Part shown: positions 1 to 64,000 of the stretch, piece after piece
Numbering within the stretch: position 1 is the stretch's first letter
How the letters are laid out: each line of letters begins with the position of its first letter
NCBI GenBank assembly: GCA_958009085.1
Contig: OY253671.1
Location: 930,001 to 994,000, forward strand
DNA: 64,000 bases
DNA from: Protoeuglena noctilucae
Taxonomy: Eukaryota
Direction of reading: 5' to 3'
Translations under genes and position numbers: made by a program
Notes under the pieces: generated by a model
What the model saw: the letters and a program-made list of their open reading frames with translations, nothing else
What the model was told of the DNA's origin: nothing
Databases searched by the model: none

Positions 1-1372
1 GGTGCAGAGGGACAGGCCCCCGCTGGGCTTCTCGTTCGCGGCGATCGCCGCCTCGCCGCTGTGCGTGTTGATGACCCACGAGGGGTCGTCCACGAAGTAC
101 AGGCCGCCCCAGCTGCAGTCCCACCAGTTGGGGTTGAGCGTGTCGGCGAAGACCACCTGGGACGTCTCCAGCGTCTGGATCTGCGCCTCGCCGGTCTGTG
201 GTGGAGCGGAGGCGGGCGGAGCTCGGCCCGACCCACCAGGGGTGCAGGGGTGCGGGGGCATTGCAACGTGGGCGTCGACCGTTCCTTGCCTGGGACAGGT
301 CGAGGCCCACGCCGGGCGAGATGCTGACTCCGCAGCAGAAGGACTGCTGGCACCCGAAGGGCGAGGAGAGGCAGGCGGGGTCCCCGAACGTGCTGTTCCT
401 CTGGGAGCACGTCAGCCCGTTCACCGTGACCTGGTCCGCGCTGATGCGACCGAGGGCCTGGGACGAGGACGCGCCGGCGCTCCCGAGGTTGTTGAAGGTA
501 AACGTGAAGGACCGCATCCCTCCCCCGCTGTCGATCACGCCGTTACTGTCCTGCAGGCAGTACATACAGGCCGCGGCCAGTGGTGCCGCGAGTCACGGGC
601 CGGGGCGCGCGCGGGATCTCAAGGAGCAGCTGCACGATTGGCGTTCATCCGCATGCCAACAGGGCCCGGCGCAGCAGCGCGGGAGGCGAGCAGCAGGGCA
701 GCGTGGGGCAGCGCGCACGAGGCAGTCCCCAGCGGCGCCCGGGAGCGTCCGCCGTCCAAAGGTGCGCCTCACCGTGTTCACTGCTCGAACCTGGGACGTC
801 CCCGGGACCGCGAGGGGCAGGGCGCCCTTGAAGTTGGCAATCTCAAGGTCCCCCGCGTCGCGGAACGACCAGACGAGCTGCCAGCCGTCGATGGGCTGCG
901 ACCTGTTGTTTTGGATGGTGAAGAGCGCGAAGAGGCCGCCCAGCAGGTCGCTGTCCGGTAACGGGGACGGCGAGGGGGCGGGCGTGGCCCCGGGCTTGGG
1001 CAGCAGCGCCGTGCTCCCCACCAGGTACGTCACCGAGACCTGCCGCCCGAGGCGCGAGTGCGGGGTCAGGTACTCCATTTGGGATCGCCGGCATGCGCTC
1101 CGGTGCGCGGGCCTTGGCGCGGCGCCAGGGGGACCACCACTCGCCTCGAAGTTCCCGCAGGTGGCGTCCGCCTTCCCCTGGGTCTGCTGCTGGAGGGACC
1201 GTTTATGCCATACATCTCCTCCATCCCCGCGAACGTTGGCGGGCGGGTCGCCCGTGCCCGCGCCCAGGTCCCGCGCGAGGAGCCCGGCACCTTCCCCCGT
1301 CCGCAGGCTCATGAGCACCAGGACCCACAGGACAGCGAAATCCGTGAAGCGCGTCAGCTGTAAACGCCCCAT
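1..1372 (-). CDS. Secreted carbohydrate-binding protein (CBM2/COBRA-like module followed by a second Trp-rich CBM-like module); 3' end runs off the window
   Basis: ATG at 1372. Signal-peptide-like N-terminus (FAVLWVLVLMSL). Spliced across intron 772-551 it reads FTIQNNRSQPIDGWQLVWSF...SFTFTFN...VTVNGLTC, which resembles a CBM2. A later exon gives VVFADTLNPNWWDCSW. GC donor at 289. Confidence 0.6.
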
Positions 1373-1843
1373 GGCTTCCCCCAGCAAGCGCCCGTCCCCA
1401 TCGGTGCCCAGGCCACGCTCGGGGATGGCGCGACGCAGCCCTGGTGCGCACAGCTCCCGCTTGCGTCCCCGGAAATGACCGCACGATCAACCACTGCGCG
1501 CCGGAGGGATCCGCGCAAGCTTGATTTCGGCGTCAGCTGCTGTCAGACTTCCAGCTCGCCCTCGAAAGCAGGCAGAGGGCGCCTGACGCTCCCATAGATT
1601 CGCTGTCGTCGGTCACAGCCCGCGAGAAATCCCCGCCGCTGCGAATCTCGCTTCGCTGCCCGCTCGACACCGCGCGTGTGCATCGCTCGAGCGGCAAGCC
1701 CGCGTACCTGCCGCCGGCTGTTGTGAGCTCCCTGCAGTGCTTTTGATCAGCACAGCCCGAGCTGCACCGCAATTGCCTCGGAGGAGCGGGGCCCGGGGGG
1801 AGCACGGGCCGCAGTGTCCGGCTCGCGGCCGCCGGAGCAGACG

Positions 1844-3794
1844 ATGGAGAAGGAGAAGACCCAGTTAGTCTACAGAAGCTTAGATGTGGACCATGGGCAC
1901 CACGCGACGCACCAGCCGGGGTTCTGGGAGGTGGTCCGGGACTTCTTCCCGGCGGGAGACGACCTGAAGGATCGCAAGTGGTGGAAGACCAAGCTGATCA
2001 AGCACTTCCTCCCACTCGGTCTCATCATCGCCCTCGTATGGGGGCTGGCGTGGTGAGCGCGCGCCCCACGAAGTTCCTCGTCCCGCGGCCCTTGGCGCAC
2101 CTGCGGCTGGCGCGCCGCGCGGCCGAAACTCGATGGCCTTCGCCGGCGCGGGAGGTGGAAGCCGACGCGCGTTTTCGCCTCCGCAGGCCCACGCCCGGCG
2201 CCTTCCTGGGCGGCCTGAAGAGCGGGAGCTGGGAAATTATCTCGACGATCAACATCTCGCTCATCTTCTTCCTGCAAGGCGTTAGCCTCAAGACGGACGA
2301 GATGAAAGCGGCGCTGAAAGCGGTCAAGGCGCGTGGCTGCCGCGGAGGCCCGCCGCTGCCCGAGAGAGGGCGTGCCTCACATTGCGTCCGGGCCCCTCCC
2401 GCCCGCCCGCAGGCGCTTTCGTACGCGGTCGTCGCCATCCTCGGCATCACGGCGTGCTACGGCTTCATCCTCTTCAACATCCCCTTCCGACCCGACGAGT
2501 TCCGCTACGGTGCTGCGTTATTCTGCGTGGTGCCCACCACGCTCACGTCAGGCGTCCTCCTGGCGAGCGGGCGCCCGCGCCAGGCTTCTCCCGCCTCTGT
2601 CTGCGCGCGACGCAGTGCCATCGACCGTCTCCCTGCCCCTGCACCGCAGGTGACCCAGGCTGGGGGCAACAGCACGCTCGCGCTGATGCTGACGGCCGGC
2701 ACCAACATCCTCGGGGTGGTGACGAGCCCCTTCTTCCTCAAGGCCGTCATCTCGTCCAGGGGCGTCGCCGCCAACGCCACCCTCAACCCCGTCAACCTCC
2801 TCGTCAAGCTCCTCATCACGGTCCTCGCGCCCTGCATGGCGGGCAAGGTGCTCCGGGAGCTGTCCAAGGCCGTCCAGGAGCTGGTGAAGAAGCACAAGAC
2901 CGCCGTCAGCCTCACCACGAACTTCCTCCTCATCATGATCGTCTGGATGCAAGTCTCCAAGGTGAGAACTGGGAGGGAGGACCACGGCGGGCATCGCAAC
3001 TCGCCCCGGTGGCTTGCGAGAGTCTGTCCTGACGCTGACAGGAGATCTGATTAATTGGACAGTTGGCCTTCAATGATCTATTGCCCATGGCAACCCGCCC
3101 CTGCAGGCCCAGCCCAAGTTCCTCTCCATCCCCGGCGCCCACATCGTTGAAGCCATCGCGGCCATGGTGGGGCTCCATCTGGCCTACCTCACGCAAAACT
3201 CGATCTGCGCGCGCCTCCTCAAGCTCCCCAAGGTGACTTGCCCAGCACTGCCCACTCTATCCCCGTGCGCGACACCCCTGCGTGCGATGGGGCATGGTGG
3301 CCGATAATCGACGCGCGCTCGCAACCCTTTCCATCGGCCCGCTCGCCGCAGGAGGAGTACCGCTGCGTCGTGATCCTGACGTCGCAAAAGACCCTGCCCG
3401 TGTCCATCACCATCATGTCCTTCCTCCCCGCCAGCCTGGGGCAGAAGGGTCTCATGACCATCCCCGCCATCGTCGGCCACCTCAGCCAGCTCCTCATCGA
3501 CTCTGCCGTCGTCTCCTACTGGGTGCACCAGGCGAGTTGGGTCTCAATCGACGAGCGGGGCGATCGGCCCAAGTCACATGAGCGAAGTGCCCATACCAAG
3601 AGATGGGACCTCTTTGTTTGTCGCAGGATGAGAAGGCATCAGAGGACGGCACGCATGCCGCGTCCGATGAGGAGGATGCGAGGTTACCGGACGGCCACGC
3701 ATCCTCGTCGCAAGACGTGCAGCACGACGACCCGTTGCCGCAAGGCCTGAGGCACCACGAGCCCACCCGGTCCAGCCACCCTTCGCGCGACTAG
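1844..3794 (+). CDS. Bile acid:sodium symporter family (BASS4/SLC10A7-like) sodium/metabolite cotransporter, multi-exon
   Basis: Spliced motifs HFLPLGLIIALVWGLAW, IFFLQGVSLKTDE, PTTLTSGVLL|VTQAGGNSTLALMLT, SQKTLPVSITI and HLSQLLIDS match the SBF-like family. Three GC-AG introns (donors 2329, 2563, 3532). Confidence 0.9.
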
Positions 3795-3977: not shown

Positions 3978-6821
3978 CTAGGGTCGGCTGGTGGCTGCGG
4001 ATGCCGCCGCTTTCACACGACGATCCATGAGCTCCTCGAGCCCCTCAGACGCACTCGTGCGCAGCACGTCCTCGTGTGCGAGCGCTGCGCCCATCACACC
4101 GCCTCCCCCAGAACCCCCTGCAGCCCCTGCCGTGGCCCCCGCAGCGTCCTCCGCAGGTCCCTCTTGGGGAGCATCTGACTCGCCCATCCCCTCCACATCC
4201 TCGTCGCTTGCATAGTCCTCCTCCGCCTCACTGCGACCCTCGTCACCCGCCTCTGCCTCCTCTTGCCCCTCTCGCTCAGCGTACCCACGCCCGTCATGCA
4301 CGCCGACGGCGTCGTCGCCTTTGCCCACCAATGCCGGCCCTCGCGTGTCGCCCTGGGGCTGAGACTGGCCCTGAGACCGGCCCCGAGAACCCAGGAGGTA
4401 GCCGCTGCTGCCGTCGTGCACCCGCCCCTCCTTGACCAGCGCCCCGGAGCTCTGCCTCGCCCGGCCCCACGTGCCGCTCCCATCGGCAAACGAAGCCTCC
4501 GAGGGGGCATGGGCGCCCGGGCTCGCCCGGCCCCGGCCCCCCAGGCTGCCCTCGCTGCTCCGGCGGTCCATGCGTTCCCGGAAGGAGGGCCCCTGCAGGG
4601 CCGACCCCTGCCTGGCCCGCCACCCCGCCCCTGGCTCTTCGTCGTAGTCCCCGTACTCCTCCTCCGCCCCCGCCGCCCCATCATCGTCGTTCTGGAGCAC
4701 CACGCCCTCGTCCAGGCCACCGCTGCGGTCCCGGGCATTGTCCTCGCCCCGGCTGCGGCGCACGTACTCCAGTTGGGCAAAGGAGGGGGCCGGCGGAGGC
4801 ACGGCGGGAGGCCCTGCGTGGGGACGAGGCACTGGAGCTGGTCACAATGGCCTGGCTGTGAAGAGGGCCCATGAAAAGGTGCGCTGTCGGCTGCATACGA
4901 GGGAACTCTCACCAGGCGTATAGGCGCCCTCATCGCCGTCCCCCATGCCTGGCAGGCGGGGCGAGATGGCAGGGTCGGGTGCCAGGTCCCCCGACACCTC
5001 GCCCCTCACGACATGGGTCGTGTAAGGGGACTCGGAGGACTGCCGCGTGAGGCTGGGACCGGGCAGCAGGCCCCAGTTGGGGTCCTCAAGGCCATGCAGC
5101 CCGCGGGACTTGCCGCGGGAGAACTGCGGACAAGACCAGGGTTCTACCGCATGACATGCAACCAGGCGGGGCCGGTTTGGGACGGGAGCCAACGCAACGC
5201 TCGTGCGAGCTCAGGCAACAATGCTCCCTCGCCTTTGCCGCCGTGATGTCTGTCTCCTCGTCGTCGACCTGGCTGCCCTCCCCGTACGACGCGGACGTGC
5301 CGTTGGCGCCGAAGATGGCACGCACCTCGTTGGTGCGCTGCGAGCGCTTGCGGCGCTCGACGCCGATCTCTGCCTTCCTCTGCGGGGCATCAAAGGGCAG
5401 GTGGGCGACGTGCAGCGGGCCACGGCGCATCTCCGTAACGCAGTGCCGCGAGCAGGGATGCTGCCCGCACCTGGGCCTCGCGCTTGTTCTTGTCTTCCTC
5501 CTCCATGCTCGCCAAGAGCTCGCGCTGCTTGTCGGCGTCGATGGCCGGCCGGAAGACCTCGCGCACCACCTGCCCGTACGCCTGTCGCCGCTTGATGCGG
5601 GCCAGCTTCTCCTGCCTCTCGCGCTCCTCCTCCTCCTGCCTCCGCCGGGCCTCGTCCTCCAGCCTCTTGGCGAACTTGCTCTTGTACTGCACCCCTATGG
5701 ACGCGACGCTCCCCGAGACGGACGTCTGCGCGGCCCGCGCCTTCTCCTCTCGCTCCTTCTCACGCTGCACCTTCTGCTCGGCCTTGCGCAGCAGATACTG
5801 CTGCTCGTGCGCCTGCGTGAGTCACCAAAAGACCGATGAGTCGAGACCCTACTCCTGGCAGCATGCAGACATCTGCAACGCCTGTGGGCCGTGGTCAGCG
5901 AGCCCAGCCACGCTGCCGCGAGGCGCGTCGCACCTGCACCATCTCCCACGAGCGGACCCGCTCCTCGAAGCGGCTGGGGCTCGTCTTGCTGTGGCCGTCA
6001 CTGTCTCGCGCCCGACGCTCCGCTGCGCGCTGCTTGATCCGCCACTCCATCAGCCGCTTGCGGTCTTCCGCGTTGCCCGCCAGCTGCCGCTCCCTCTCGG
6101 CCTTGCGCTCCTCGATCTGGGCCATGCGCTGCGCCATCTCCTCCCTCCGCCGCGCGTCTCTCTCAGACGCCTTCTCTCGCAGACGGTTCTCCCTCGCAGC
6201 GAGCGCCATCTCCAGCTGCTGCAGCCGACTCTGCTCCGCCACCTCCCGCTCGGCCCGACGCTTGTCCATCTCGAGCCTCAGCGCCGCGTTACGGCGCACC
6301 GCCGTCCGGTGGTCAAAGCTCGACGCCCAGTTCGCTGCTGCAGAGGCCAGGGAGCCCCCGCCGCGCCTGACCGCCTCGCCGTCGACGTCAAGGACGGACC
6401 GGACCGGCACAACGAACCCACCCGGCGAGTTTGACGAGCCGGCCGGGGACGTCTCCGGTGGCACGATGTGCCGGACGGGTCTGAGTCGCACAAAGACTGT
6501 GAGGAATGCGATGGAGCGCGGGCTAGAGGACGCATGGCGACGCGCAGGCGCAACAGGTGTGGCCTCACCGCACGTCGCTGATGACCGCCCGCCTCGGCGC
6601 ACCCTTGGTGCCATTCTTGACGGGAGGGAGGTCTTTGAGCTCCTTTTTCGCTGCTGGTTCCGCGTACGAACTGCAGCGGCGGCCAGGTTGCAACGCGGGT
6701 TTGGCAAGGTCTCGCGCAGGGCAAGGGTCTCCTGGTGGCTCCGCGGCCGGACTGCTCACCTCGTGACAACCACGCCGTCATAGGATGCCTCCTGTGACAT
6801 TGTGGGGATTTCCGGAGCCAT
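3978..6821 (-). CDS. Hypothetical coiled-coil protein with acidic low-complexity C-terminus, about 7 exons
   Basis: ATG at 6821. Exons join with GT/GC-AG sites into a long E/R/K-rich helical region (LEMDKRRAEREVAEQ...; YKSKFAKRLEDEARRRQEEEERE...YGQVVREVFRPAID). Stop at 3978. Family not recognised. Confidence 0.65.
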
Positions 6822-10500: not shown

Positions 10501-13500
10501 TCGGCCACAGCAGCGACTCGGCCGGGGCGCAGATCTACAAGATCCGCGGGAGGGACTGCGACGCCCTCCTGCGCGCCACGGGGTTCGAGGTCAGTCAAAG
10601 TCATCGGGGCTGTCATGAGGGCGTGCGAAGTGACTGGGGTGGTTACTGAGGCGTGCAAAGTCAGTCACTAAGCGCATCGCTTCCCGGTCGTCACGTCCGA
10701 GCTATCCAATATACTGAGCCTTCCACACCTCGCTTCCCCCCGCAGGTGGTCGTGGTGGACCTGCTGATGCGCAGCAAGCGCACGATCTTCTGCGTCGCTG
10801 ACCTGGACCCGGCAGCCGAGGCCATCCTGGCCACGGAGCCCTCCAGCGGCGCAGGGAAGGCCGGGGCGGGCAAGGCGGACGCCGGGAAGGCCAGCCGGGA
10901 GCCCAGCGCCTGGAATACGACGAGTGGGGAGACGGCAGCTGGCTCCTCGGCATCCACGTCGACTGCCCCTGCGTCCCAAGGGCCCACCGCCCGGGCGGCC
11001 CCCTCGAACGCGGCCGGGCCCTACAAGTGAGCGCGCGCGAGCGCAGCACGTCTGCTCGAACGGGGCACAATGACAGCGTCTCCTTGCGCTTATAATAGCC
11101 ACCTGCCATGGGTGCTTGGGGGCCGCTTCAAATGCCCGCCTCGTCTCTGCGATGCGCGCAGCTTCCCGTACGTTCCCTACACGCTCGTGCCCGACGGCAA
11201 GTTCGGCGCATTCAAGCCGGGTCATACCCTGGGCCGCGTCGTTGAAGTGGGCATGTCCGCGGACGCCTCGATGCTGGCCATCACCCACTGGCTGCCCCAC
11301 GTGGTCGCGGCGGGCTACGAGGACGAGGTCGTTAACCTGACCATCGAGGTGAGACAGATGGGAAGCACGGCGTACCCTAGTCAGCCCACGCACGCGATGC
11401 GCGTCCTTGCGGGCACGACACGAGAGACACCATAACTCAGCGAGCTGCCCCAAAGATGACTAATTTAATCACACATCTATTCTCCTCGCTTCCCAGACGG
11501 TCTTCGTGCGCACGGAGGACGGCGGGTACCGCCCCACGGCCAGCGGCGCCCCGGACCTGCGCCGACTGAACGTGCGGGCGTCCCAGCCCTTTGAGATCGA
11601 AGTGCAGCCGCGGAAGGGGCCGACCACGCTGTCGGGGAAGGTCTTCGACCCGGCCAAGACCCGGCTGGCCGTGTTTGGCGTCAGCAGCCTGATCCACAAC
11701 GTCGTCGACTTTGAGTCCCGGCAGGACGTCCCGTGGGTGCAGCTGCAGGTGTTCGACGTGTCAGGAGCGGCTGCGGATGTCCTCGACCTCTCCACGGGCG
11801 TTGCAGAGACAGTACCCGGGGCCACCGGCCTCAAGCGTATGCGTGCCCTGCACACACGCATACGCGCGGGCGCGTCGCACAACATATCGGCGGCCTTCAA
11901 CGTCGACTCGACCCTCCTCGTCATCGCCGGGTACGACTGGGTCGAGACGGTCAGGCGAGCGGGGCGGCGCACGGCCGCCTGGCTGCGACAGCTCCCGACG
12001 GCAGCCGCCGTCCTTTCTCTGCGTCTCTGCCAGCCAGGATTGGCATTTCGTTGATCCGCGCCGTGACGCTTCCTCATTCCCGTCCCCGCAGCCTCGACAC
12101 GTGGGCGGCGGAGCGGCGGTTCCACATCGACGCCCTCATCCTGCACCCCGTGGACCAGACCATGTGCCCCAGGGGGCTGCCCCAGGTCTTCGCCTATCGA
12201 AAGAAGGACATCACCGCTCAGATGATCGAGAGGGGCGCGCCGTGGAAGGTCCTGCCGCCGCGGACCGTCGAGGAGCGGCCCCAGGCGCTGGCGCGGGTGA
12301 CGGCTGAGTCGGGCGTCGGGTCGGTGCCAGACTCCGTGCCGGAGTCGTGCCCGCCGTCCCCGCGGAGGGATGGCGCCGGGGGCCCGGCGGAGGCGTGGCC
12401 GGACCCGGCGCTGTCGTCGCGGGCGTCCCAGGAAGACAGTGAGCCGGCGGGCGTGGCGCGTCACGCCCTGGCCGCGCCTACGGCCCTGGCCCCGGCCTTG
12501 CACGCCCGCATGGGCCCGCGGCTCACGTGGGCGGAGAGCGAGGACGCCGACGAGGAAAGGGTCGCCGGTGAGAATCGAAGACCCGACCTGCGCCGCCTTG
12601 GAGGGCGTGACTGCTGAGTTGACGACAGATTGATGCCGAGTATCCACCCATGCATGGCTTGCTGCTGGGCAACCTGGACGGCATGCCTTGACTGGGATGC
12701 GCGTGTGCTCATCGGTGCTGAGATGCCACCTGTCGCAGGGCGGGGCGATGGGGAGAGAGCGGCTCGACTGACGGACCCCCCAGTGATGGGGAGCAGGCAA
12801 GGCGACGAGGCGACAGGGCAGGGAGGCAAGTCTTCTGAGGGCCAGAGGACTGGGCTTAGAGAGCAGAGCAATGACGCCGAAGATCCATCAACGGGACCTC
12901 AGCGTACCGCCACTGTCGTCCCCAACGGCGGTGCCGGTGTCCCCACCGCCGACCACGAGGGCCGCCAGGCGTCGCGTGTGCCCTCTCGGCAGGCGTCTGC
13001 AACAGCTGGGCCACTTGCCAAGGGGCCTCCTGGTCCAGCCCCAATCGTTCGTCGCGACAGAGGCGCGTCGGGCACCCTCCCGCCACTGCCGGGCTCCCTC
13101 AGCGACCGCGCTCTGCTGTTAGACGGTGCCATCGACTCGGCGGGCCCCATGGCTGAGTCTGCTCTCCCTGCGCTCTCTGCGCGTGAGCCCTCAGGCACAG
13201 TGACCCCGTCGGACCGGCGTGGGGCGCTCGGCTCGGCTGGGGAGTCGCTGCTGGGCGACAGGGGGGGCCCCGAGGACGCAGAAGAGTACCTGGGGAGCAC
13301 GTGGGTGGACTCCGACGGGGCCGGGAGCAAGGCCGGCTCGACGCGGGGCCGCAACGCCGGGGCACGGCCGCGGGAGGGGACCGCGCTGTCCGTGTCAATG
13401 TCGGTCGCGCCGCGCCGCACGGCGCACCACTCGGCGCCGGGCATTGCGAACGGCCGGGGCTCGGCGGTGGCTGACGGAGACGGCGCGGGCGCAGCGGGGG

Positions 13501-48745: not shown

Positions 48746-48876
48746 TGGGCGTGGGATGGTGCGCGCTAGTGAGAGTCAGCCGCCCCCACTCCCGGCCTCA
48801 ATTCACCGGTCGCCGTGCTGGCGTTGGCAACCTTTGATTGTCAATAGCGTTATGAAGTTCGAATGCTCTGGTCGCG

Positions 48877-51744
48877 TCAGGCAGCCCAGGCCGTCCCCGT
48901 CACCTTGGCCGCGAACCCATAGCAATCGGCGATCTCCTCGATCACCTTCGCCGTAGGCTTCCCAGCCCCGTGACCCGCGCGCACTTCGACGCGCACCACG
49001 AGCGGGTTGCGCTGGGGCGAGTCCGGCGACCCGCACAGCGTGTGCTGCAGCTCCGCAATGAGCTTGAGGCTGCGGGCGCAAGCAGGGACAGGGACGTCGT
49101 GAGCTGACGACTGATGCTGGGCTCACGAGCTGGCGTCAGGTCACACCCACCTGTGGGAGGGCACGACGCGGTCGTCGTGGTCGGCGGTCGTGAGGAGCAT
49201 CGGCGGGTAGTTGCGTGTCCCCAGCTCGGGCACCCGGACGTTGTGCAGCGGCGAGTACCCCAGGAGGTAAGCGAACTGCTCCGGGTCGTCCGCGCACCCG
49301 TAGCCCGTCTTCCACGCGTGCCCGATCGTGTGCAGGTGGAAACGCAACATGTCCATGACCCCGACCTTGGCGATGGCGCAGCCGAAGAGGTCCGGGCGCT
49401 GGTTGCAGCACGCGGCGACCAGCAGGCCCCCGTTCGAGCCGCCTTCGATGACGACCCTGCCCCGGGACGTGTACCCGCGCTCAATCAGGTGCTCCGCGCA
49501 AGACTGGAAGTCGTCGAAAACGTTCTGCTTGTTCATCACCGACCCGGCGTCCCTCCAGGAGACGCCGTACTCGCCGCCACCCCTCAGATTGGCCACCGCC
49601 GCGACCCCGTCGTAGGCGCGGAGGAAGGCGATGCGCGAGACGGAGAAGGTCGGGAGGATGGAGACGTTGAAGCCGCCGTAGCCGTAGAGGAGCGTGAGCG
49701 CGGAGCCATCCACGGGACGGCCGCGCCTGTGGATGATGAACATGGGCACCCGCGTGCCGTCGCGGCTCGTGACGAACTCCTGCCGTGTCTCAAAGTCCTC
49801 CGGATCGAACCCCGGCACCTCCGATCGCTGGACGAGCTCCAGGTCCACGCGCGCGCCGCCGTCCCCGATGCTGCCCCGGTAGATGCTGCCGGGGTCCGTG
49901 AAGGACGTGAAATTGACGAAGAAGTCGTCGTGGGACCGCTTGCCGCTCAGCCCTGACAGCGTGCCGATGCCGGGGAGGTCCACGGTCTGCAGAAGCGCCC
50001 CGTCGCTCAGCCGGCGCACCTGCAGCTCGTCTGCGGACAGGACGCGGGCGGGGGGCGACGTCGGCGTGGCGGGCGCGCGCCTCAGCGACCCCGCTGCGGC
50101 GCGGGCCGCGTCGCTGCGCACCCTTGACGTCCACCATGTAGCACGTGAGGAGCGTGTCGTGCTGCACGTGCGCCCACTTGAGCACATCCTTGTCGTGCTG
50201 CGTGCAGCCGACACGCCGGGCATCAGTGACAACAAGGGAGGCAAGGAGGTCCCCACAACAAGCCGCCGCCGTGCGCAGAGAGAGCGGCCTCGCCTGGGGC
50301 ACCACGGTGGCCCAGTCCCGAGGGTCGCCCGCGTCCCGCACGTCGCAGCGCACGAGCTTGTAGCGCGGCGCCCCGCAGTTGGTGCGGAAGGTGAAGACGG
50401 GCCCGTCGTTGCAGACGTACGAATAGCTCCCATCAAACGAGTCCACGAGCTTCGTCAGCGGGACCATGGGGCGACCCTTGGCCACGTCATGCGCCGAGAA
50501 GTCCAGCGACCCGTCCGGCGCACGGGGCACTTGCTCCAGGTCCACCACGTAGAGCCGGTTGGCGGGCAGGCACCCCTCGCTGATGTACAACACCAGGTAC
50601 CTGCGGGCCGGAGTGAATGGGGTCGCCGTTGTTGCGGTTGCCTGATAGCACCAGCCTGACGGCACCAGGGTCTCCTCTGTTTGCCCAAGCAGCCAGGGTC
50701 AAGACTCACTTGCCGTCCTCGGTGACTTCGGCCCCGCACATCCACCGCGGGTGCGCTGGGTCCGCCCACACCACTGGGTCATCCTCCTGCGGCCTCCCTA
50801 AGCGGTGGTAGCAGAGCTGCTGGTTCTCGTTGATGTCCCGCTCCGTGCCCAGCTCCTTCAGCCCCTTGGGTCCCAAGTATCGGTTGTAGAAGATCCCCAG
50901 GCAGTCGTGGGTCCACTCCAGGCTGCTGAACTTGACGTAGCGCAGGGTCCCGGCATCCAACAGCGCCTTCGCCACCCCGTCCGGACGCACGCGCAAGAAC
51001 TTGGCCTCGCACCAGTCGGAACCCCCGCTGGCCAGAAAGTAGGCCACGTGCTCTCCGTCCCGCGCCACGGAGTGCGCGGTGAGCGCCACTGTGCCGTCGG
51101 TCGAAAGCGTGTTGGGGTCCAGCACGGTGCTGGGCTCCCCGTCGAGGGTTGACCGGACCTGCAGCACGTATTGGTTCTGGAGACCCGAGTTGTACATGGC
51201 GAAGTAGCGCTGGCCTTCGCGGTGAGGCACGCCGCGCTTGGGGTAGTCGTAGAGCTTGGTCATCAGGTCGCGGAACGGCCCACGCGTCTCGCACTGCTCC
51301 AACAACGCATCCGTGACTCGGTTCTGGGCATCCACGAAGGCCTTCGTCTCGTCCGCGTCGGGATCCTCGAGCCACCTGCGAAACGAGCGACGTTGCACAG
51401 TGGATCCCAATGTACGAATCCCATGGGGCAGCGCATTGTGCACTCGTACGCACCGATATGGGTCTGCCACTTTGACGCCGTGGATCTCCTCCACCACCGT
51501 GGCATCCCTTCGCACATCGGGGTACTGGCTGGGCAGGACCTGCGTAAAGAGGGAGCCTTTTACGCTCACCGTGACTTGGAGCAGCTGCGCGCTGCCTATG
51601 CTCCCCTCATGAGCTGCATTGGCTTGCCTGCAGCGTCTCCGTGACGACAGCGCCCTCGCGAGGGGAGCGCGCTGCCATGGTCGTCCGCACCACGGATGCT
51701 CTCGCCGAGATCGGTCGTGCAACGCGAAGGGACGCCTGTAGCAT
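48877..51744 (-). CDS. PREP: Prolyl oligopeptidase (S9A)
   Basis: YPDVRRD...VADPYRWLEDPD, NSGLQNQ, LDPN, YGYGGFN, ANLRGGGEYG. Catalytic triad: GGSNGG (Ser), DHDDRVVPSH (Asp), AGHGAGKP (His). GC donors at 51627 and 50293. Confidence 0.96.
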
Positions 51745-51994: not shown

Positions 51995-54027
51995 ATGGTT
52001 GGGGTCCTGGGGATAGCGCGGGCGGGCATTGGAGGCCCGTCGCGTGCAGGGACGCTGCATCGGTGCGGCGCGGTGCGCGGGACGGCACCCGTCGCTGCAG
52101 ATTGGCGCGAGAAGGCCAAGCCCATCGCACCTGGCTCGCCCTATCCCGCGAAGGAGCACTGCTCGAAATGCGGGCTGTGCGACACGTACTACGTGGCCCA
52201 TGTGAAGGAGGCGTGCGCTTTCCTCGGATCGGGAATGTCGGATGTGGAAGCGGAGATGGAGCAGGCGGTTCATGGGCGCCGGCGTGACCCCAGGTCAGAG
52301 GACGAGGACCTGCTGGGCGTGGTGGAGCGGACGCTGTATGCGCGCGTGCGGCCATCAGTCCCGGGCGCTCAGTGGACGGGCATCGTGACGAGCATCGCCA
52401 CACGGATGCTCGAGCGTGGCATGGTCGATGCGGTCGTGTGCGTGCAGAGCCAGGTGTGACGCCGAGGGTCAGGCTAAGCTCTTGAGAGGCCCCTGAACAG
52501 CATCTTGCATTCGTGGTCGTGAAGAGACACATACCAACTTCTGGTGTCTCTCTGTCGGCACGCAGGACGACGACCGCTTCGCGCCCAAGCCGGTGGTGGC
52601 GACGACGGTGGAGGAGGTGCTAGCCGCACGGGGTGTCAAGCCGTGCCTGAGCAACAACCTGTCCGTCCTCGCCACGGTGGAGGCGATTCAGGCCAAGCGA
52701 CTCCTCTTCATCGGGGTCGGGTGCCAGGTCCAAGCCCTCCGCAAGGTGCAGCAGCACCTGTTGGGCCTCGAGGAGCTGTATGTGCTTGGTGAGACCCGAG
52801 TGCGCTGGATGTGGACGTGCGGTGGGTGGGGTTGGGCAGGCCAGCACTGCGCCCTGCACTGCACCAGCACTGCGGCATGTCGTCAAAGCCACGTGCTTGC
52901 GTCTCGCAGGGACCAACTGCGTCGACAACGGCACGCGGGAAGGGTTCGAGACCTTCCGACTAAACGCCAGCGAGACCCCGGACACTGGTGGGTGCTGTGC
53001 GTGGTGGGACACTTGGAGCCAGGTTTCTGCGACCCCCGTGCCACTGCCGCGCTCGTCACGGTGATGCCCTCCCGCTGTGACGCTTTGCCCGCAGTCCTCC
53101 ACTACGAGTTCATGCAGAATTACAACGTCTTCATAAAGCACACGGACGGGCACACGGAGAAGGTCCCTTACTTCTCCCTCCCGGCAAAGAAGCTGTCCAA
53201 CGTGATTGCGCCGTCGTGCTACAGCTGCTTCGACTACACCAACGCCCTCGCGGACCTCACCGTGGGGTACATGGGTGCGGTGCTGCGGCAGATATCATGG
53301 CGTGCACGTGTGATGATGCCCTGCCGCAGCTGCAACTGCGGCGCCTGTTGATGCAACGTCCATGGCAGTGCTCGTGTGGCTGCGCAGGGGTGCCCTACCA
53401 GGGCGTGGACATGACAGAGCACCTGCAGTACGTGACGGTACGCAACGAGCGGGGCAGGAAGATGCTGGAGACGATTCGGGACGTGCTGGAGGAAGTCCCT
53501 GCGACGTCGTCAGGAAGCAGAGGGGAGCTGGTGATGCAGACGCTGCTGAGGCGAGTGCGGGCAGAGTATGGGTGCATGTGTGTGTCACTGTAGAGGTGGC
53601 AGCACCTGTGATTGCGCCCCTTTGGCAGGAGCACGGCAGAGACGCGCGTCGAGCTCTGCTCACAGTGACGACATGGCCAAGTTCGGGGAGGGTCCGGACC
53701 CCATGCCCCGGTGGCTTGGCCGAGTCCTGGCGGCCATCGTCACGTTCGTGGGGCCCAAGGGCATCGAGTTTGCCAAGTACTCAGGCGAGGGCAGACCCCC
53801 GTTGCGATGATACCTGAGGGTCATGAGACGGCAGTACCTAAGCGATGTGTAGTGTGTTTCCCGCAGTCGAGTACCACTACCTACGGAACTGGCTGTATGT
53901 GCACCGCCACTGGAAGCCCGAACGTGCTGCGGCGTACGTCCCCGCTTACGTGCGGCGCCTGGTGGAAAGGTACGACCGGGACGGCAAGATGACCGAGCTG
54001 CTGCGAAAGGGGAGGCCGGGCAAGTAG
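51995..54027 (+). CDS. HCAR: 7-hydroxymethyl chlorophyll a reductase, chloroplastic (FrhB-like)
   Basis: DWREKAKPIAPGSPYPAKEHCSKCGLCDTYYVAHVKEACAFLG, GAQWTGIVT, GVGCQVQALR, GTNCVDNG, HYEFMQ, CYSCFDYTNALAD, GPKGIEFAKYSVEYHYLRN. GC donors at 53551 and 53785. Confidence 0.95.
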
Positions 54028-54181
54028 CACGGTGGTTGCCTCAGCAACCACCGTGAGACGGCAGTCCAGTGGGCGAGTGTGTCCCGAGCGCAGTGAGCGC
54101 GCAGAGTTTGGCCAGATAAAACACCCCAGCAGTTCAATTGCACAGCTTCCCCTCCAATGTCATGCTCAAGGAAACACGTCG

Positions 54182-56306: not shown

Positions 56307-56357
56307 ACGCGCGGCGCGAGCAATTGCCTACGCCTGCCCTGCTGCCCTGACTCCGCA

Positions 56358-58328
56358 TCAGGCGGCCGACGTCCCCGCCGCTGCCGCCACCGCTTGCCCT
56401 CTCGTGCGCTGCATGGCTTCCTTCGAGATGTCCTGCGTAATCTTGCTCACCACGTCCAGCACGCGGTCGATGTTCCTGCCCCAGTCGTTCAGCACGTCGT
56501 CCGCCGTTTGAACCTTGCCGAACCGCACGATGCCCTGCGAAGGAAACGACACCAGACCCTGTCCTGTCACCTTACTGCCCCAGCCCAAGCGCCAGGCCCA
56601 ATTGGCTGGCTCCTACCGAATCTCCCTATCGACAGCGTTGGTGGACAGGAAAGTGACCGTCCCACCGCACCCGCATGCCCCACCCGCCCCGTATACGCCG
56701 CCGCACCTTGGGCCGGTCGATGCGCACCGTCACCGCCTTCCCGTTGACCATGTCGGCCAGGTGACGCTCGGCCTCGGCGATGGGCAGGGCCAGGAGCTGC
56801 CCCAGGCGCTGCATCGTGACGCGCGTGTAGTACTTGGATACCACGAGGATGTTGTGCTGCACCACCCGGAGGCGGAGGTCCTCGCGCCGCTTGGTCCCGC
56901 GCGGCCCCGCGAAGACCTCCGGCGTCGCTTCCATCTCCGGGGCGAAGCGGGACTGGAAGGCGTCCCACGGCGCAATCTCGACGGTCGTGAAGGTGCGCAG
57001 GAGCTCGCGGCAGGCGGGGAGGTCCTGCATGCGTTTGTCCTGCATCGTCGTGTTGAGCAGCGTGTTGTGCTCGACGCCGGCCGGCGACAGCGCCAGGTAC
57101 CAGCAGATGTTCCGCAGCACGGGCTGCCACTGCCCCGCGTCCGCCTGCACGCTGTCTGTGTCGTAGATGGCCCGGAAGCACCGGCAGACCTCCAGGTAGT
57201 CGTCCTGGGCCTCGTAGTACCGGATCATCATCCGATAGTACCGAATCTTGAGCTCCTCCACCCCGGGGGTGCCCTCCTCCGGGGGCTCGATGCGCGTCCC
57301 CTCAATCCTGCAGCACACGGCGCAGTCCGGGACGCATGAGGGTCGCGAGTAAGCTCGCGCAGTCGCGGGATGCCGAGACAGTCGCGAGCCGTCTGCGCGC
57401 GGGAGAGAAGGGCAGGGTGGAGCGGGTCACGCACCCGAACGCCTGCTCTGGGCCGGTGGACTTCTTGAACGCCCCCGGAGAGATCTTCTTGGCGAGGATC
57501 TGTGCGCGCACGTTGTCCCCGCGGTCGAGGCAGAGCCGGACTTGCTCCAGGATGTAGCTGATCTTCTCCAGCTTGTGCATGGCGCCAAACGTCTCGACCG
57601 CCACCTCTTGCAAAAGGTCAGCAGCCCCCGCCACGTCGCCCTGGCTTTCCCGGATGCCGGCCAAGCGCTTGGTGAGGCGGGCGCGCTCGATCTCGACGAA
57701 GATCTTGCCCATCGTGACGCCCAGGAGGGTCTCGATGAGCTTAACCTGGGTCGCCTGGTCCGGGGCCTGGTCCACGTACCGCATGGCCTGCCGCACGAAG
57801 TCCTGGATTGCACCCCGCAGCTGCGCCCGGCGCTTGGAGAGCAGCAGGATGTGCTCCATCAGCAGGTCCCACTTGCCCGCCGCGAAGCAGCACTCGAGCA
57901 GCGCCCGGCACGCCCGCGACGTGCCCCCGACGTCCTCCGCGAGACGCTCCGTGCGCTCGAGCGCCAGGAGTCCCTGCAGCGCCGCATCAAGACCTCCCTG
58001 CACGAATTCGGGGACCCACAGCGTCGCTGGCGGCGCGGGCGCGGAGGGAGCCGAAGTCCAAAGCAGTTGGGAATGTCGGCCTGCTCCCAGCGCGCGGTAC
58101 GGGATCGCTGGGTCCCGGGACCCACAAAGGAGCTCGCAGTCACTCGACCATGGCGCGGACTTCGCGGGATGCGCGAATCACGCGGCGCAGCGGGAGATGG
58201 CACCGTGGCAAGCGCTAGGCGCCCCTTGCCTTCGCTGCCAGCTCCTTGTACCCCGCGATGTCGGTCTCCAGACTCGAGTAATCCCGCGCCTTCTTGCTCG
58301 TCTCCCCCTCCGGCTTGTCCACGGCCAT
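56358..58328 (-). CDS. RPN5: 26S proteasome non-ATPase regulatory subunit 12
   Basis: LLALERTERLAED, LLSKRRAQL, GKIFVEIERARLT, LQEVAVETFGAM, ILEQVRLCL, RVVQHNILVVSKYYTRV, RIDRP, LNDWGRNI. GC donor at 58229. Confidence 0.96.
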
Positions 58329-58866
58329 GCTGCTCCCCGCCGCCCCCGTGTCCTCCGGGACTGCCATTCTCGCGCCCTCCTAGCCTCCCGCAGCAGATCC
58401 TCTCCGCCAACAGCAACCTCGCGACAATGGGACCTTCGCGTCGATCACCTCGCGCCGCGACCGTCCCAGGGAAGCGCGCACAGTGCAACTATTTGCGAAT
58501 GCTACCAACGTGTGCCTCTGAACGCGCGCGGGTGGTGGGCGCAGCAACGGGCGACTGAGGATGGCGCGTCTGAACACACGGGTCAGCAGACATTCCGCAC
58601 ATAGCCAGCTCGGGCCGTGTCCGACACTGACAGTCACGCCAGCACAATGCGCGCTTGCTTTCGGAGCGGAGGCCTCGCTGGTGGTCATGCCAACGTCGCT
58701 GACTTGTTGGCGGTCGCGCAGAGACTCTCCGCCATCGTGGTGGTGACGAAAGGCCGGGCAGTCTTTGGTCCGCTCGCCTGCTCGCCCTGCGTCGACGTCT
58801 CCCGCTGCGCCCAGCGACTCTGTCAGGGAGGGGCACTTACCCGAGCATGGCCTGCTGAGGGCAGAC

Positions 58867-61800
58867 ATGGCGGACGTGGATAGCTCGGCGCCCGACAAAG
58901 CGGGGCTGAGGGAGGACCAAATCGGCAACGCCGTGGCCTTCCTCCAGCACCCGAAAGTCCGAAACGCAGGTGTGATGCAGTTGATGAGTGCGGTGCAATT
59001 GAGGAGAGCCAGCCTCGCCAGCTTCGCCCGTCCTCCCCCCCCCCCTGAGCCGCTTGCCTCGCCGGCCCGCTGCGCCGCAGAAGTCAGCGCGAAGAAGGAT
59101 TTCCTGAAACAGAAGGGGCTCACCGAGGACGAGATCGAGGAGGCATTCCGTCGCGCGGCGGCGGCCGGCCCCACGGAAGGGGCCCTGCCTGCCCCAGCTC
59201 CAGCACTGGCAGCGCCGTCGAGCGCCCCGGCCAAGCCCTGGCAGCAACCGAGCCAGATTGCTGTCCCCCCTGCCGCTCCAGCCCCGGCCCCGGCCCCGGC
59301 GAAGGAGGGGCGCGGGACCCTGCGCACGGTGCTGGGGCTCGCTGTGCTTGGTGGAGGACTCTACGGGTTGCAGAGGCTCGTGCAGCCGTACGTCACGGAG
59401 TGGATCCAGGCCTGGCGCGACAAGCGGCGGGCCGAGGTCCAGGTGGGCCGCGACCCACAAGGGCCACCACATGTATTCATGCCGCCGACGCGAGGGCATG
59501 AGCGGCGTGTTGCTGACAGAAGCCCGCCTGACAGAGCCCGCGTTCTGTTCCCGGACTCGCAGGAGAAGGAGGACCGGCTTGCGAAGATCGCGGAACGCAT
59601 GAGCGTGGAGTACTCGGAGCTGCACGTGAAGCTGAGCGACGTGGCCAGCTCGGTTGGACGCCTGGCGGCCAGCCTTGAGGCACAGGCGAGGAGGCGCAGA
59701 GACAGACGCGTCGGCTGCATCGGCTGCTTGCCCGCGCAGCATACCTTGACGCGAGCTGTCGCCCTGCCGTGGCGCAGGGTCGCTCCAGCACAGGCGTGTC
59801 GCTGTCAGACCTGCGCCAGGAGCTCCGCACGTTCGCCGCGGTGATACAGGACGCCGCGCCCTCCCCGAATCCCAAGTCCGCGGGGCCCCTATCCAGGTGA
59901 ATGCAGCGACTATGTTGGAATGCAGTCGGTCATGTCGGCGATCATCGTAGCGGGGGTTGCGACTGACGTGCTCCCTGCTCGCGGCTGGCATGACTGCAAC
60001 CGCCCTTCGCGTTCCTGCACTGCAGCGCGGTCGCGGAGTCGCGTGCGTCTCCTGAGATGGACGCCCGCGTGGAGGAGCTGGCCAGCCGCATGGACGCCCT
60101 GCAGGCAGAGCTGGGGTCGCTCCGCGCGAGCGTGGCATCCGCGGCTGCCCTGGGCACCAGCCACAGCAACGCGGCGTCTCCGTCGGGATGGGGGCAGCGC
60201 CCGGGGCCCAACCTCACGGGGGGATCTGAGAGGCCGTCTGGCGGCTCCAGCATCAGGTGATGGGCGGCGGTAGCGGGGGTGGCATACATGGCGATGATAG
60301 TTGAGACGCTTAGTGGTTGATGCGAGGACGAGATGGGCGCCTGAGTCATCTTGTGTCTTCTCGCCAACGCCGGCCCGCCTCTCCCTGCCCGCAGCCTGTC
60401 TCATCAGGGCACGCCTGCGGCAGACGCCAGGGCACACCCCGCGCAGCAGCTCTCTTACCAGGACATCCTCGACATGGTGCAGAGGGGCGAGACCCCACCC
60501 AACATCCGCAAGGACATCGGTGAGTGCTCATGCAGGCACGCGCGACGTGCAATGTGGGGTGCGGTAAGGGGGCTGATCGAGAGCAGCCGCGAGATTGGAA
60601 TGCGCAGTAATAGCGCTGCAGCTTCTTGGCGCTTGGATTATACTTTCCTCGTTGTGTCGCTCTACCCTTCAGGTGTACTGCAACCCCAGACACTTGTTGC
60701 TCGCAGTGGACTCCCCGCCGGACCCCTCTCGGCCCCTCCCGCCCCGTTTAATGGCGCTGCGGCCCAAGCCGTGGCAGGCCAGCAGCGGGGGCGGCCCAGG
60801 CGCCATCACACCGCCCACGCCACCCCCGCCCGCCCCGGGCCCCGTGGGCCAGCCCTCGGGGTCAGCCCGGGAGGCCCTGGCGCCAGGCCCCGCGCCCGTG
60901 TTCCGCAGCGACAGTCGGGTGGAGGATCTCAAGCCCTGGCAGGCCATGCAAGCCGGCATGGCCGTGCAGCCGCCACCCCACATCCGGAGGTGAGCCGCGT
61001 GGCGTCCGGCATCCGCACTCGCACATCTTTCACGTCTCCCGTCTTATCGAGGTTTCATCATCACTTGTGCATCGCTGCCCCACCATGGCGCAGAGCAGCA
61101 CACCGCGACTCGCTTCCCTTTGCAGTGCGGACTCGTACCTCCCCTACACCACCCTGGCTGCCGACAACCGCCGCTACGACGGACACACGGCCAACGCGCG
61201 CTCCGACGGCACGCCTGCCGCGACGGGGCCCCCAGAGCGCCACTTGCCACCGCAAGCCACCCCGGCCATGTCAGGGGTGTCGTCTGGTTCCACCGCACCG
61301 CCCCCCGGGTCTGCCTCTGGCTCCACGCCGCGCCAGGCGGGCGCGGGCCCCGCCGCGCAGTCGCCGCTGGCCTCCACGGCCGCCCCGACCGCGTCGTCTT
61401 CAGGGACGCAGTCGTCCTTCTCGCCTTACCACCACATGTACCACAGCCGGGGGGGCGCGGCGGGCGGCGCAGCCACGCCGGACACGGCCACGGGCGGCCG
61501 AGGGCCCGGGGGCTGGGGCGACGCCGCTTTGGGGGACGCACGCCGCAATGCGGGTGGGGTAGCTGTGGCGGGGTGGCAAGGGTCCATGCAGGGCGAGGGG
61601 GCGGAGGAGGATGCGTGGACCCCACCGCCGATGCCGAAGCCAACGCTGGTGAGGAACGGGGGTCGAGTCCAGGGCAAGGAGGGGAACGGGGAGGGGTCGG
61701 TGGACCGGGGGTCGGAGACGGCGGGGGACGTGGGGGAGAGTGGGGCGGGGCCAAGCGGGGCCTCTGGCGCGAACGGTCATCATGCTGAAAGGGGCAGCCG

Positions 61801-61909
61801 GGGCGAGGAGGACGCTCCGGGCAGTTCGGGGGAAGGGCGCAAGGGGTCCGGGCTTCGTGTGAGCGCCGCGGAGTTCACGCCCGGGGCTGCTGGGGAGTCT
61901 GAGGCGTGA
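58867..61909 (+). CDS. PEX14: Peroxisomal membrane docking protein PEX14
   Basis: REDQIGNAVAFLQHPKVR...KKDFLKQKGLTEDEIEEAFRR (Pex14 N-domain), a TM segment, coiled coil, SYQDILDMVQRGETPPNIRKDI and KPW motifs as in plant PEX14. Confidence 0.93.
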
Positions 61910-62088
61910 GGAGAGAGACGGGGCTAGCAGTTCAACCACGCGCGTTGAATGCGAGAGCTGGGCAGTTTACAAGGTCCAGGGCGGCGTCTGCTACTTCGCG
62001 ACAGCTGCGAGCGTGCATGGTGCTACCACAACTCCACCACTAATATGCAACTATGCTCTATGCCGGGGTAGTTGCCTTGACGCATCGA

Positions 62089-64000
62089 TCACCACTCTCC
62101 GTTCGTGAGTGCGTCTAGCACGTCCTTTTCTGTCATCCACTGGCCTACCAGCACGCAATGGCCGTTGCACCGGGCGCGCCGGGGGCAGCATCGCCGGTGG
62201 GCTGCCGCGCTCAGGCATCCCGAATGCCCCCGCAGCGCATTGGAAGTTCCAGCGAAGGGCGCAGCGAGCCAGGGACACGTGGCCAGTGCTCCGGTGGCAG
62301 CAATGACGCTCGCATCGACGCCGGCAGGGGCAGCCATCGCGCTGTTACCCGCCCCGTCGCCCACGTCACCCTGCGCCGCGTCAGCGATGCCGACATCGTC
62401 GCCGCTGCACCCCAGGACGAGCACGGCCAGGTTGCGCAGGTTCTCCATCGGCGGACACCAGACACGCGCGAAGGATTCGCAGCCCCAGGCGCCCACTGCA
62501 GAAATGCGGGACAGGGAGGGGAGGCCGCCGAGGGCGGCGCACAGCCGCTGCGCCGTCCGCTCGTCGAGGCGGCTGCGGGGGCGAGAGACAGATCATCGTG
62601 ACGTGCACCGTGTAGGCTGCTAGGACACGGGCCTGGCTGTCATCGCAGCGCAGGCGCCGCACCCTGAGACTGACATATCGATGCGGAAGTGCGTCAGTCC
62701 CTCCATGACGGCGATCGCCCGTGTGCCCGCCTCAACGGCCGATGGCTGGTAATCCGTCAGCGCACACTCGCTCAGGTCCAGCGCCTGCGAGAGACGGGCG
62801 AGAGCACGTTCCGACCCGGGCATCGCCACACGCCTGGCAGCGGCACAAAGCTGCTCGGTCCAACACAGGCAACGTCAGCTCGCTAGGCCGCGTCGCTCGC
62901 CTGGAGGCCGCGGAGTGCGGCCAGCACCGCGACCCCTGCCCACGTCACGTGTTCGTTCCACGCCAGGCTCAGCCGCGTGAGGCTCGTGAGTCCCACCAAC
63001 CGCGGGAGCCCCTCGTCCGTGATGCCGGCGCCCGGCGCGCGCTTGGGCAGCGGGCGTCGCTGGCCAGGTGGCCCAGCAGACAGAAGGAGGCACTGGAGGG
63101 CGGGGACGCAGTGCAGGTACTGCATGCCCTCATCGGAGAGGAGCGACGACGCGGAGAGGTCCAGGTGCGTGAGGGACGACATGCCCTGCAGGGTCTCGAG
63201 GTCCAGGTACGGTGGGGCGCCGGACGTGGAGGCCCGGTGGAGGTAGGGCAGTCGGAGGGCGCGGAGGTGGCAGAGGCGGGAGAGGCCGTCGAAGGGGCGG
63301 TCGCATCCGCTGTAGAAGAAGGCGTCGGAGATGGCGAGGGAGGTCAGGGCGGACAGCGCGGTGAGCTGGTCCAGGCCCGGGTCGTCCCAGCACTCGACGC
63401 AGAAGCGCTCGAGGGAGAGCTCGCGCAGGCTGGAGAGCCCCGCCATGCGCCGGACGTCCGAGGGCGACAGGGACATGCGGTGGGTGTTGCCAGCCCGGGA
63501 CCCCACCAGGGCCAGGGACTGCAGGCCAGTGAGGGCCCAGAGACCCTCGAGGCTCCCCGGCACAAACTCCGGCTCTGAGCTGGAGACGTGGTCGCTCCAT
63601 TGGAACCACTCAGAGGGCGAGACGGAGAGGCGGGTCAGTTGAGTGAGGCCAGACGCCTCGTCCGCCTGCAGCGGGGCGACGTCCACGGCGCGCAGCGAGA
63701 GCCGGGAGAGGGACGGATGGGTGCGGCACAGGCGCAGGAGCGCGGCCCAGGGGTCGCTCGCGTCCCTGCGGGGGCCACGGAGCGGCGCTGATTGTGCGGG
63801 GCGAGCCATCAGGTGGGGTGAGGGCATGGTCGCTGGGCAATGCGGGGCTCACGAATCTGTGGCGCGGCTGGGGCGATCATCCTCCTTGGCGAAGGGATTG
63901 GGGTCGTAGTTGGGCTCGGGAATCGCATATGTGTCGCTCCCCAGCTGCGGTACCTCGACGGTGGCGTCCAGATCTGTGGCAGTCGGGCGCAAGCGGCGCT
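62089..64000 (-). CDS. Leucine-rich repeat (RNI-like) protein; 5' end outside the window
   Basis: Repeated LxxLxL motifs (LTQLTRLSV, LSSLRELSL, LTHLDLSASSLLSDEG, ITDEGLPRLVGLTSLTRLSLAWNEHVT). GC donor at 62900. The final exon frame and stop are uncertain. Confidence 0.8.

Follow-up and report, generated by a model that had tools for sequence, protein, structure and literature searches.

Abundant GC-AG introns with strong donor contexts in a GC-rich 64-kb window of a putative deep-branching green alga

Gene content of the window and its host

This study concerns introns that begin with GC instead of GT in a stretch of 64,000 nucleotides, positions 930,001 to 994,000 of contig OY253671.1 (assembly GCA_958009085.1, Protoeuglena noctilucae), which is called the window here and is numbered from 1 to 64,000. 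The window is tightly packed with intron-rich eukaryotic genes on both strands and our gene models have about 5 introns per gene with a median intron length of 116 nt. The G+C content is 66.7% over the window and it is even, ranging from 63% to 70% per 4-kb step. When 134 predicted exons were scanned against Pfam exon by exon, the genes identified were those for an SBF-like (BASS) transporter, a K+ channel, a polycystin-like channel, pyruvate kinase, eIF2A, a sterol methyltransferase, an LTD/CotH protein, a CitMHS/TrkA_C transporter, a CBS protein, prolyl oligopeptidase, HCAR (FrhB-type), RPN5/PSMD12, Pex14, and a leucine-rich repeat (LRR) protein. These are unrelated housekeeping genes. A protein search with an exon of the HCAR gene returned green algal and land plant proteins that are true 7-hydroxymethyl chlorophyll a reductases, and in a tree the HCAR of the window was on a long branch where it grouped with environmental sequences only. 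Because of this position and because its identity to every named green algal or plant sequence is about 65%, we read the host as a deep-branching, intron-rich green alga. Transcripts of the window were found at an identity of at least 99% in marine metatranscriptome contigs from one study.

GC donors read in RNA

The first-pass annotation of this DNA had listed 22 introns, in unrelated genes, whose best in-frame donor is GC. All 22 positions carry G followed by C on the strand concerned and in 20 of them the exon ends in AG. As had been described, the donors mostly read (A)G-GCGAG or AG-GCAAG, GCGAG being present at 16 sites, GCAAG at 4, GCGCG at one (2329) and GCACG at one (14062). The observation was confirmed: 13 of the 22 introns have independent support, which comes from RNA contigs for 4, from a transcript-derived protein for 1, from homologue-profile scans for 4 and from Pfam continuity for 4, whereas 8 are present in gene models only and the one at 14062 is probably wrong.

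RNA contigs of three marine metatranscriptome samples of one study (X1, X2, and X4) and contigs of a DNA run (X7) were aligned over positions 43050-63049, which is the 20 kb richest in claimed sites. There were 41 RNA joints in this stretch and our results rest on the 15 that were listed, which, after ambiguity had been resolved, were 11 GT..AG joints and 4 GC..AG joints. The four GC..AG joints matched exactly the claimed donors at 48292(+), 50293(-), 51627(-), and 58229(-), and GC..AG was the sole canonical placement for each of them. The introns are in the CBS-domain gene (48292..48376, +, aag-GCGAGCG), in the prolyl oligopeptidase gene (50198..50293, -, cag-GCGAGGC, where Pfam spacing agrees, and 51540..51627, -, cag-GCAAGCC) and in the RPN5/PSMD12 gene (57998..58229, -, aag-GCAAGGG). 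The one at 51627 was skipped in a contig of X1 only and the other three in contigs of X1, X2, and X4. Retention of such introns or the use of nearby GT donors had been named beforehand as the observations that would speak against GC splicing, and what we found at the four sites read in RNA is that the intron is skipped and that, within alignment ambiguity, no GT..AG placement is possible for any of the joints. None of the 15 listed joints was seen in the DNA run X7. Over 43050-63049 this run had zero differing letters, which means that in this stretch the C at position +2 of the donors is not an assembly slip.

The GC donor of the K+ channel gene (23839..23923, +, cag-GCAAGTC) is fixed by a protein. 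A protein search with an exon of this gene found P0276 (jgi, 520 residues, from a 1900-nt contig), the last 486 residues of which are identical to the spliced model. The coding sequence of the gene has a genomic span of 2333 nt with 8 introns and therefore the 1900-nt contig from which P0276 comes must be spliced RNA. P0276 fixes eight introns of the gene, seven GT-AG introns and the GC-AG intron at 23839. Its first 34 residues also reveal one more coding exon on the 5' side (21879-21930) and, after it, a GT-AG intron (21931-22056, +), both of which the gene finder had missed. RNA was thus seen for 5 of the 24 predicted GC introns, by the four contig joints and P0276, and not for the other 19.

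Support from homologues

Junctions in two genes were examined with profile hidden Markov models built from 68 HCAR and 33 pyruvate kinase homologues, and every in-frame GT or GC donor and every AG acceptor within 45 nt was scored. For HCAR it was the more distant homologues that were informative, the near-identical match P0001 being an unspliced ORF. At conserved GT junctions, which served as the positive control, the modelled GT donor scored highest in 4 out of 4 cases in HCAR and in 6 out of 6 cases in pyruvate kinase. At the GC junctions tested the GC donor was highest in 4 out of 4 cases, 10-16 bits above the best GT. In the HCAR gene the intron at 53551..53665 (+, gag-GCGAGTG) gave 729.0 bits compared to 719.1 bits for the best GT (+9.9) and the intron at 53785..53866 (+, cag-GCGAGGG) gave 729.0 bits compared to 713.4 bits (+15.6). 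In the pyruvate kinase gene the GC donors of the introns at 26512..26621 (+, aag-GCGAGGA) and 27571..27749 (+, cag-GCGAGTG) were 14.0 and 13.0 bits, respectively, above the best GT, and across 26512 the Pfam PK positions 258 to 261 are exactly continuous. The scan was uninformative at the N-terminal junction of pyruvate kinase, and at the last junction of HCAR it showed that the gene model was wrong there.

Four other GC donors are supported by the continuity of Pfam matches. The matches run from position 104 to 108 of Pfam eIF2A, with the split codon counted, across the intron in the eIF2A gene (28987..29129, -, tgg-GCGAGTG) and from 59 to 60 of Methyltransf_11, which is exact, across that in the sterol methyltransferase gene (31681..31781, -, gag-GCGAGTG). 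The SBF-like (BASS) gene has two such introns (2329..2412, +, aag-GCGCGTG and 2563..2649, +, ctg-GCGAGCG), and across both of them the SBF_like match goes from position 61 through a 50-residue exon to position 115, which is the correct spacing. The intron at 2329 is in frame and stop-free and its support is this spacing only. In the unspliced BASS translation the best profile stretch begins at residue 155, the first residue after the 2563 intron. A metagenome scan with a BASS exon found one relative with 36% identity (L001) and no cDNA. It had been proposed that the GC donors restore known motifs in conserved proteins, and sites in the pyruvate kinase, BASS, eIF2A, HCAR, and prolyl oligopeptidase genes are among those supported by homology or by RNA.

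These data confirm that GC donors in the window are real splice donors. The alternative, that the true donors are nearby GT sites or that the sites reflect retained introns or assembly errors, draws on the donor at 14062, which has a better in-frame GT 4 nt away, and on the 5 of 24 GC introns that are in frame and stop-free and could be read through. It is refuted already at 13 sites, and for the GC donors as a set we regard it as extremely improbable: no GT placement exists for the four RNA joints, the exact match of P0276 fixes another site, the best GT alternatives are 10-16 bits worse at four more, the DNA run has no differing letters over 43050-63049 and, as shown below, the excess of the GC-type donor motif equals the number of putative GC donors.

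Frequency of GC-AG introns

Introns of the whole window were predicted with a gene finder, a dynamic programme based on codon usage and splice matrices that was seeded from the 15 RNA joints. With its first settings genes were chained together and these settings were replaced. The gene finder predicted 21 of the 22 claimed sites. It is imperfect in that it recovered 10 of the 15 RNA-confirmed introns; in 43050-63049 it predicted 42 introns compared to the 41 RNA joints. By hand curation we added the five RNA-confirmed introns that it had missed and the introns 14066-14206 and 14302-14453, and we removed the introns 13996-14453, 53950-54093, 57974-58229, and 62005-62369, the last of which is contradicted by a contiguous piece of an RNA contig (61757-62572). 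Two long GC introns at 35290 and 39292, which had merged 33457-42733 into one model, were spurious and were also dropped by hand.

In the curated models 24 of 129 introns are GC-AG, which is 19% (95% confidence interval 12-26%; P = 3e-23 compared to a rate of 1%). In the uncurated output of the gene finder, under several settings, 24-27 of 125-131 introns had a GC donor. The proportion was 27% (4 of 15) in the listed RNA joints and 24% (9 of 37) in the fully tested sets, but the aligned 20-kb stretch and the homology-tested genes were picked for their claimed sites and these two values are biased upward. The earlier estimate was that the window has somewhat over 100 introns and that GC donors make up at least 10% of them; the share found here is well above 10%.

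The excess can also be seen in the DNA without gene models. AGGCRAG occurs 45 times in the window compared to 25.6 +/- 5.1 times in 100 shuffles, none of which reached 45, and 20 of the 45 occurrences are at predicted donors. AGGTRAG occurs 23 times compared to 10.1 +/- 3.2 times in the shuffles. Thus, strong donor motifs of the GC type are in excess by about 19, which matches the count of putative GC donors and is above the excess of about 13 for the GT type. Since the DNA examined is 64 kb, the excess of GC-AG introns might be local, with a much lower fraction in the genome at large, if the window happened to lie in a GC-rich isochore, on an outlier chromosome or in some other unusual region. 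Set against this are the even G+C content along the window and the spread of the GC-AG introns over 17 of about 24 gene models, which encode unrelated housekeeping proteins, and we consider a local excess very unlikely.

Donor context and a probable mechanism

GC donors differ from GT donors in their context. The full AG-G.NAG context was present in 10 of 13 verified GC donors and in 2 of 27 verified GT donors (p = 1.8e-5), A at +4 was present in 12 of 13 and 11 of 27, respectively (Fisher p = 0.002), and the mean complementarity of the verified donors was 6.31 for GC and 5.24 for GT (p = 0.0017). The suggestion in the first-pass annotation that a strong context compensates for the C at +2 is therefore upheld. 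Burset in 2000 and Thanaraj and Clark in 2001 reportedly found that GC-AG donors are closer to the consensus at the remaining positions. Among donors with strong context the ratio of C to T at +2 was 20:16 in the models and about 19:13 by motif excess, and base composition alone would give 67% C at this position. The ratio is near this expectation, and GC-biased mutation, which had been proposed as the driver, fits the data.

In other respects GC and GT introns are alike, namely in acceptor, in composition and in length (median 109 nt and 119.5 nt, respectively). The acceptor reads GCAG in all 15 RNA-verified introns (for example 48369-48376 and 50198-50205) and in the curated set C is at -3 in 99-100% and G at -4 in 91-92% of the acceptors. 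The GT donors of the curated set have G at +3 in 94% and at +4 either A (56%) or C (30%), so that the common GT donors are GTGAG, GTGCG, and GTGGG rather than GTAAG, as at 47716, 49150(-), and 56706(-). No branch-point box could be recognised, CTRAY being present in 14 of 104 GT introns and 2 of 24 GC introns (16 of 128). A length that is a multiple of 3, with no stop in the frame of the exon, was found in 17 of 98 GT introns and 5 of 24 GC introns (for example 2329-2412, 2563-2649, 43221-43385, and 50198-50293); retention of these introns would give in-frame insertions and a reading based on open reading frames (ORFs) is blind to them.

Two unusual intron classes known in some green algae do not fit the introns of the window. 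U12-type introns were looked for by a donor [AG]TATCC together with a CCTTAAC branch box, the consensus being taken from PMC3033335, and are ruled out: a U12-like donor was present in 0 of 128 introns, a word like the branch box in 1 of 128, and the claimed donors read mostly GCGAG or GCAAG. Introner elements are ruled out because an all-against-all blastn of the 128 introns gave one weak non-self match (30 nt, E = 0.001). We consider it likely that the GC-AG introns are ordinary U2-type spliceosomal introns with C at the second base instead of T.

A probable explanation of their abundance is that GC-biased mutation or gene conversion drives +2 from T to C and that C would be tolerated only at donors whose other positions make up for it, namely an exon-end AG, a purine at +3, A at +4, and G at +5. 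About half of the donors with strong context would by now have become GC, which would make roughly one intron in five GC-AG, and the simplest reading of this would be a mutation-selection balance at +2. The mutational drive and the canonical spliceosome are both parts that we infer for this best explanation. Several points weigh against it. Eight of the 22 sites are present in models only and one is probably wrong, and the figures cover this 64-kb window only. A single study of environmental samples, and not the sequenced strain, is the source of the RNA, and 15 of the 41 RNA joints are shown. The GC-donor matrix of the gene finder was retrained on its own predictions and, as a result, the model-only sites and the context statistics for all introns are partly circular. 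Finally, the population is probably very large, and a nearly neutral ratio of C to T in it would be just as compatible with an adapted splicing machinery.

This last point leads to the rival explanation that the spliceosome of this lineage is altered and accepts C at +2 as readily as U, which would be an adaptation and not tolerance. The alteration could be a base change in U1 opposite to +2, a base modification, or changed contacts of U1C, U6, or Prp8, and relaxed recognition of this kind is what had first been inferred for this DNA. The ratio of C to T in strong context, being near base composition, suggests that selection against C is very weak, and RNA modification or the proteins of the U1 snRNP were left open as causes of GC-AG excess by Iwata and Gotoh (PMC3033335). 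On the other hand, the context that GC donors in the window require is much stronger than that of GT donors, as is classically seen when C at +2 carries a penalty, and in the same paper the putative 5' end of U1 is the canonical AUACUUACCUG in Aureococcus and in both Micromonas species, M. pusilla included. An Rfam scan of the 64-kb window gave no match and so no snRNA. By analogy with those algae, a U1 or U6 variant would be disfavoured by precedent, and we think an altered spliceosome unlikely. A stronger form of the same idea is that +2 of 5' splice sites with strong context is effectively neutral between U and C, the share of C there being about 55-60% compared to the 67% expected. To us this seems rather less probable still. 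If it were true, in a very large marine population, the spliceosome would have lost nearly all discrimination at +2, possibly because U1, its modification, U1C, U6, or Prp8 has changed. The alga would then be a natural system where +2 is recognised independently of the other donor positions. The explanation that we prefer is the balance between mutation and selection in a canonical spliceosome.

Sites present in gene models only and other features

The GC donor claimed at 14062 is probably wrong, since it does not share a frame with the acceptor at 14206, and no other acceptor opens the next exon. The GT at 14066 is in frame with this acceptor. The GT-AG intron predicted in its place (14066..14206, +, cac-GTGGGCC) is at the level of a model and its donor resembles verified GT donors.

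The donors at 289, 3532, 5232, 36944, 37405, 43385, 59686, and 62900 have ab initio support only. When these eight introns are read through, the codon log-odds are between -0.21 and -0.48, which is like GT introns (mean -0.30), and the flanking exons are positive. The predicted introns are 196..289 (-, cag-GCAAGGA..ACAG), with read-through log-odds of -0.26 compared to +0.15 and +0.39 in the flanking exons; 3532..3626 (+, cag-GCGAGTT) in the tail of the BASS gene beyond the end of the Pfam domain; 5124..5232 (-, aag-GCGAGGG); 36944..37070 (+, cag-GCGAGCA) and 37405..37574 (+, gag-GCGAGTG, with one read-through stop) in the LTD/CotH gene; 43221..43385 (-, cag-GCGAGAG) in the tail of the CitMHS/TrkA_C transporter gene, which is in frame and stop-free and has read-through log-odds of -0.48; 59686..59777 (+, cag-GCGAGGA) in the Pex14-like gene; and 62785..62900 (-, cag-GCGAGCG) in the LRR gene, where a stop follows after 5 codons of read-through. 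In the spliced reading the LRR protein has ..LRGLQ-ALDLSEC.. at this junction, which carries on the LRR pattern from earlier in the exon. A protein search with an LTD exon found no usable homologues, its matches being P0121, which is an unspliced ORF of the window itself, and three LTD proteins that are distant, and Pfam at a relaxed E-value found nothing in the short exons around 36944, 37405, and 62785.

Three further GC-AG introns, which were not in the first list, are predicted ab initio. They are 4085..4183 (-, tgg-GCGAGTC), which is in frame and stop-free and is weak, 11955..12091 (+, cag-GCGAGCG), which has two read-through stops, and 42172..42274 (+, gag-GCGAGTG).

Some other features of the window were observed. 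The LTD/CotH gene (35711-39165, +) encodes a probably secreted protein with a hydrophobic leader at its N-terminus, a lamin-tail-like domain (the matches carry PF00932) and a weak match to CotH kinase, a combination that is unusual for a green alga. In two convergent gene pairs (48745/48877 and 56306/56358) the stop codons are 131 nt and 51 nt apart, respectively, and single RNA contigs span both genes of each pair, so that their 3' untranslated regions probably overlap or abut. The DNA contigs of X7 are interrupted, leaving loose ends, near 49600 (49580-49630) and at 61375-61496, and X1 RNA contigs end loosely at 61230 and 61469. These places may hold a short repeat or allelic variation.

Comparison with other GC-AG-rich genomes

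The usual fraction of GC-AG introns is given as 1.3% of 2.46 million introns (PMC3033335) and as 0.3-2% (bioRxiv 10.1101/2024.10.30.620910). The baseline of about 1% that had been assumed for most plants and animals accords with this and overlooks GC-rich algae, which are known exceptions. In the figures of Iwata and Gotoh 2011 that we draw on, the fraction is 39.6% in Aureococcus anophagefferens, 22.2% in Micromonas pusilla, 7.7% in Chlorella sp., and 2.7% in Micromonas RCC299, the excess tracks genomic G+C, and its origin is called an enigma (PMC3033335). A later estimate is 14-17% for strains of Aureococcus and 14% for Pelagomonas (bioRxiv 10.1101/2024.10.30.620910). In Emiliania (Gephyrocapsa) huxleyi about 60% of the donors are GC and GT-biased gene models were wrong (Feldmesser et al. 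2014, PMC4028052).

The window shares with Aureococcus, M. pusilla, and Chlorella a high G+C content (64-70%), a GC-AG fraction at least 10 times the usual one and ordinary AG acceptors, and in those algae the excess has been attributed to GC content as we do here. It differs from them in intron density, its about 5 introns per gene being compared with 0.91 in M. pusilla CCMP1545 (PMC13213038) and 0.4-0.9 in Aureococcus (bioRxiv 10.1101/2024.10.30.620910). Every prasinophyte in the table of PMC13213038 has between 0.2 and 0.9 introns per gene, so that the intron-dense alga of the window is not among them. This intron density together with the placement of HCAR indicates that the alga belongs to another lineage than the GC-AG-rich algae published so far. 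With E. huxleyi the window has in common a high G+C (65% in that genome), RNA-verified GC donors, AG acceptors of the canonical kind, and mis-modelling by GT-biased predictors, but E. huxleyi is a haptophyte in which GC is the majority donor whereas the green alga of the window keeps a GT majority of about 80%. Compared to the ordinary U2-type GC-AG introns of plants and animals, those of the window have the same GC donor, AG acceptor, and stronger remaining consensus, and their frequency is about 15-20 times higher. Our literature search found, among the matches listed, no paper that pairs GC-AG introns with Prasinoderma, Chloropicon, Pycnococcus, Picocystis, or Tetraselmis. Thus, earlier papers already describe the GC-AG excess, its relation to G+C and the harm it does to gene prediction, and the novelty here is the lineage.

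Consequences for annotation and wider meaning

It had been anticipated that predictors which allow only GT donors would mis-model many of these genes. When the gene finder was run with GT donors only, it lost 406 nats, split 20 models into 26 and mis-placed exons at verified sites. Because 17 of about 24 models contain one or more GC-AG introns and because the GT-only run fragments them, GT-only or GT-biased annotation of this genome will break or distort a large share of its genes. Errors of another kind are present in a public protein collection, where P0001, P0121, and P0275 are unspliced ORF calls that read through introns (52593-53348, 35913-36689, and 22856-23674, respectively), P0001 being a near-identical match to an HCAR exon and an unspliced ORF on a genomic contig. 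These three are spurious proteins that come from prokaryote-style gene calling on eukaryotic contigs of this or a near-identical genome.

With the window, the few GC-rich algae known for abundant GC-AG introns are joined by a green lineage that is intron-rich and deep-branching, and the ratio of C to T at +2 can be read here as a function of donor context. This bears on a question posed in 2011, namely why GC-AG content can vary ten-fold between related genomes whose G+C is similar.

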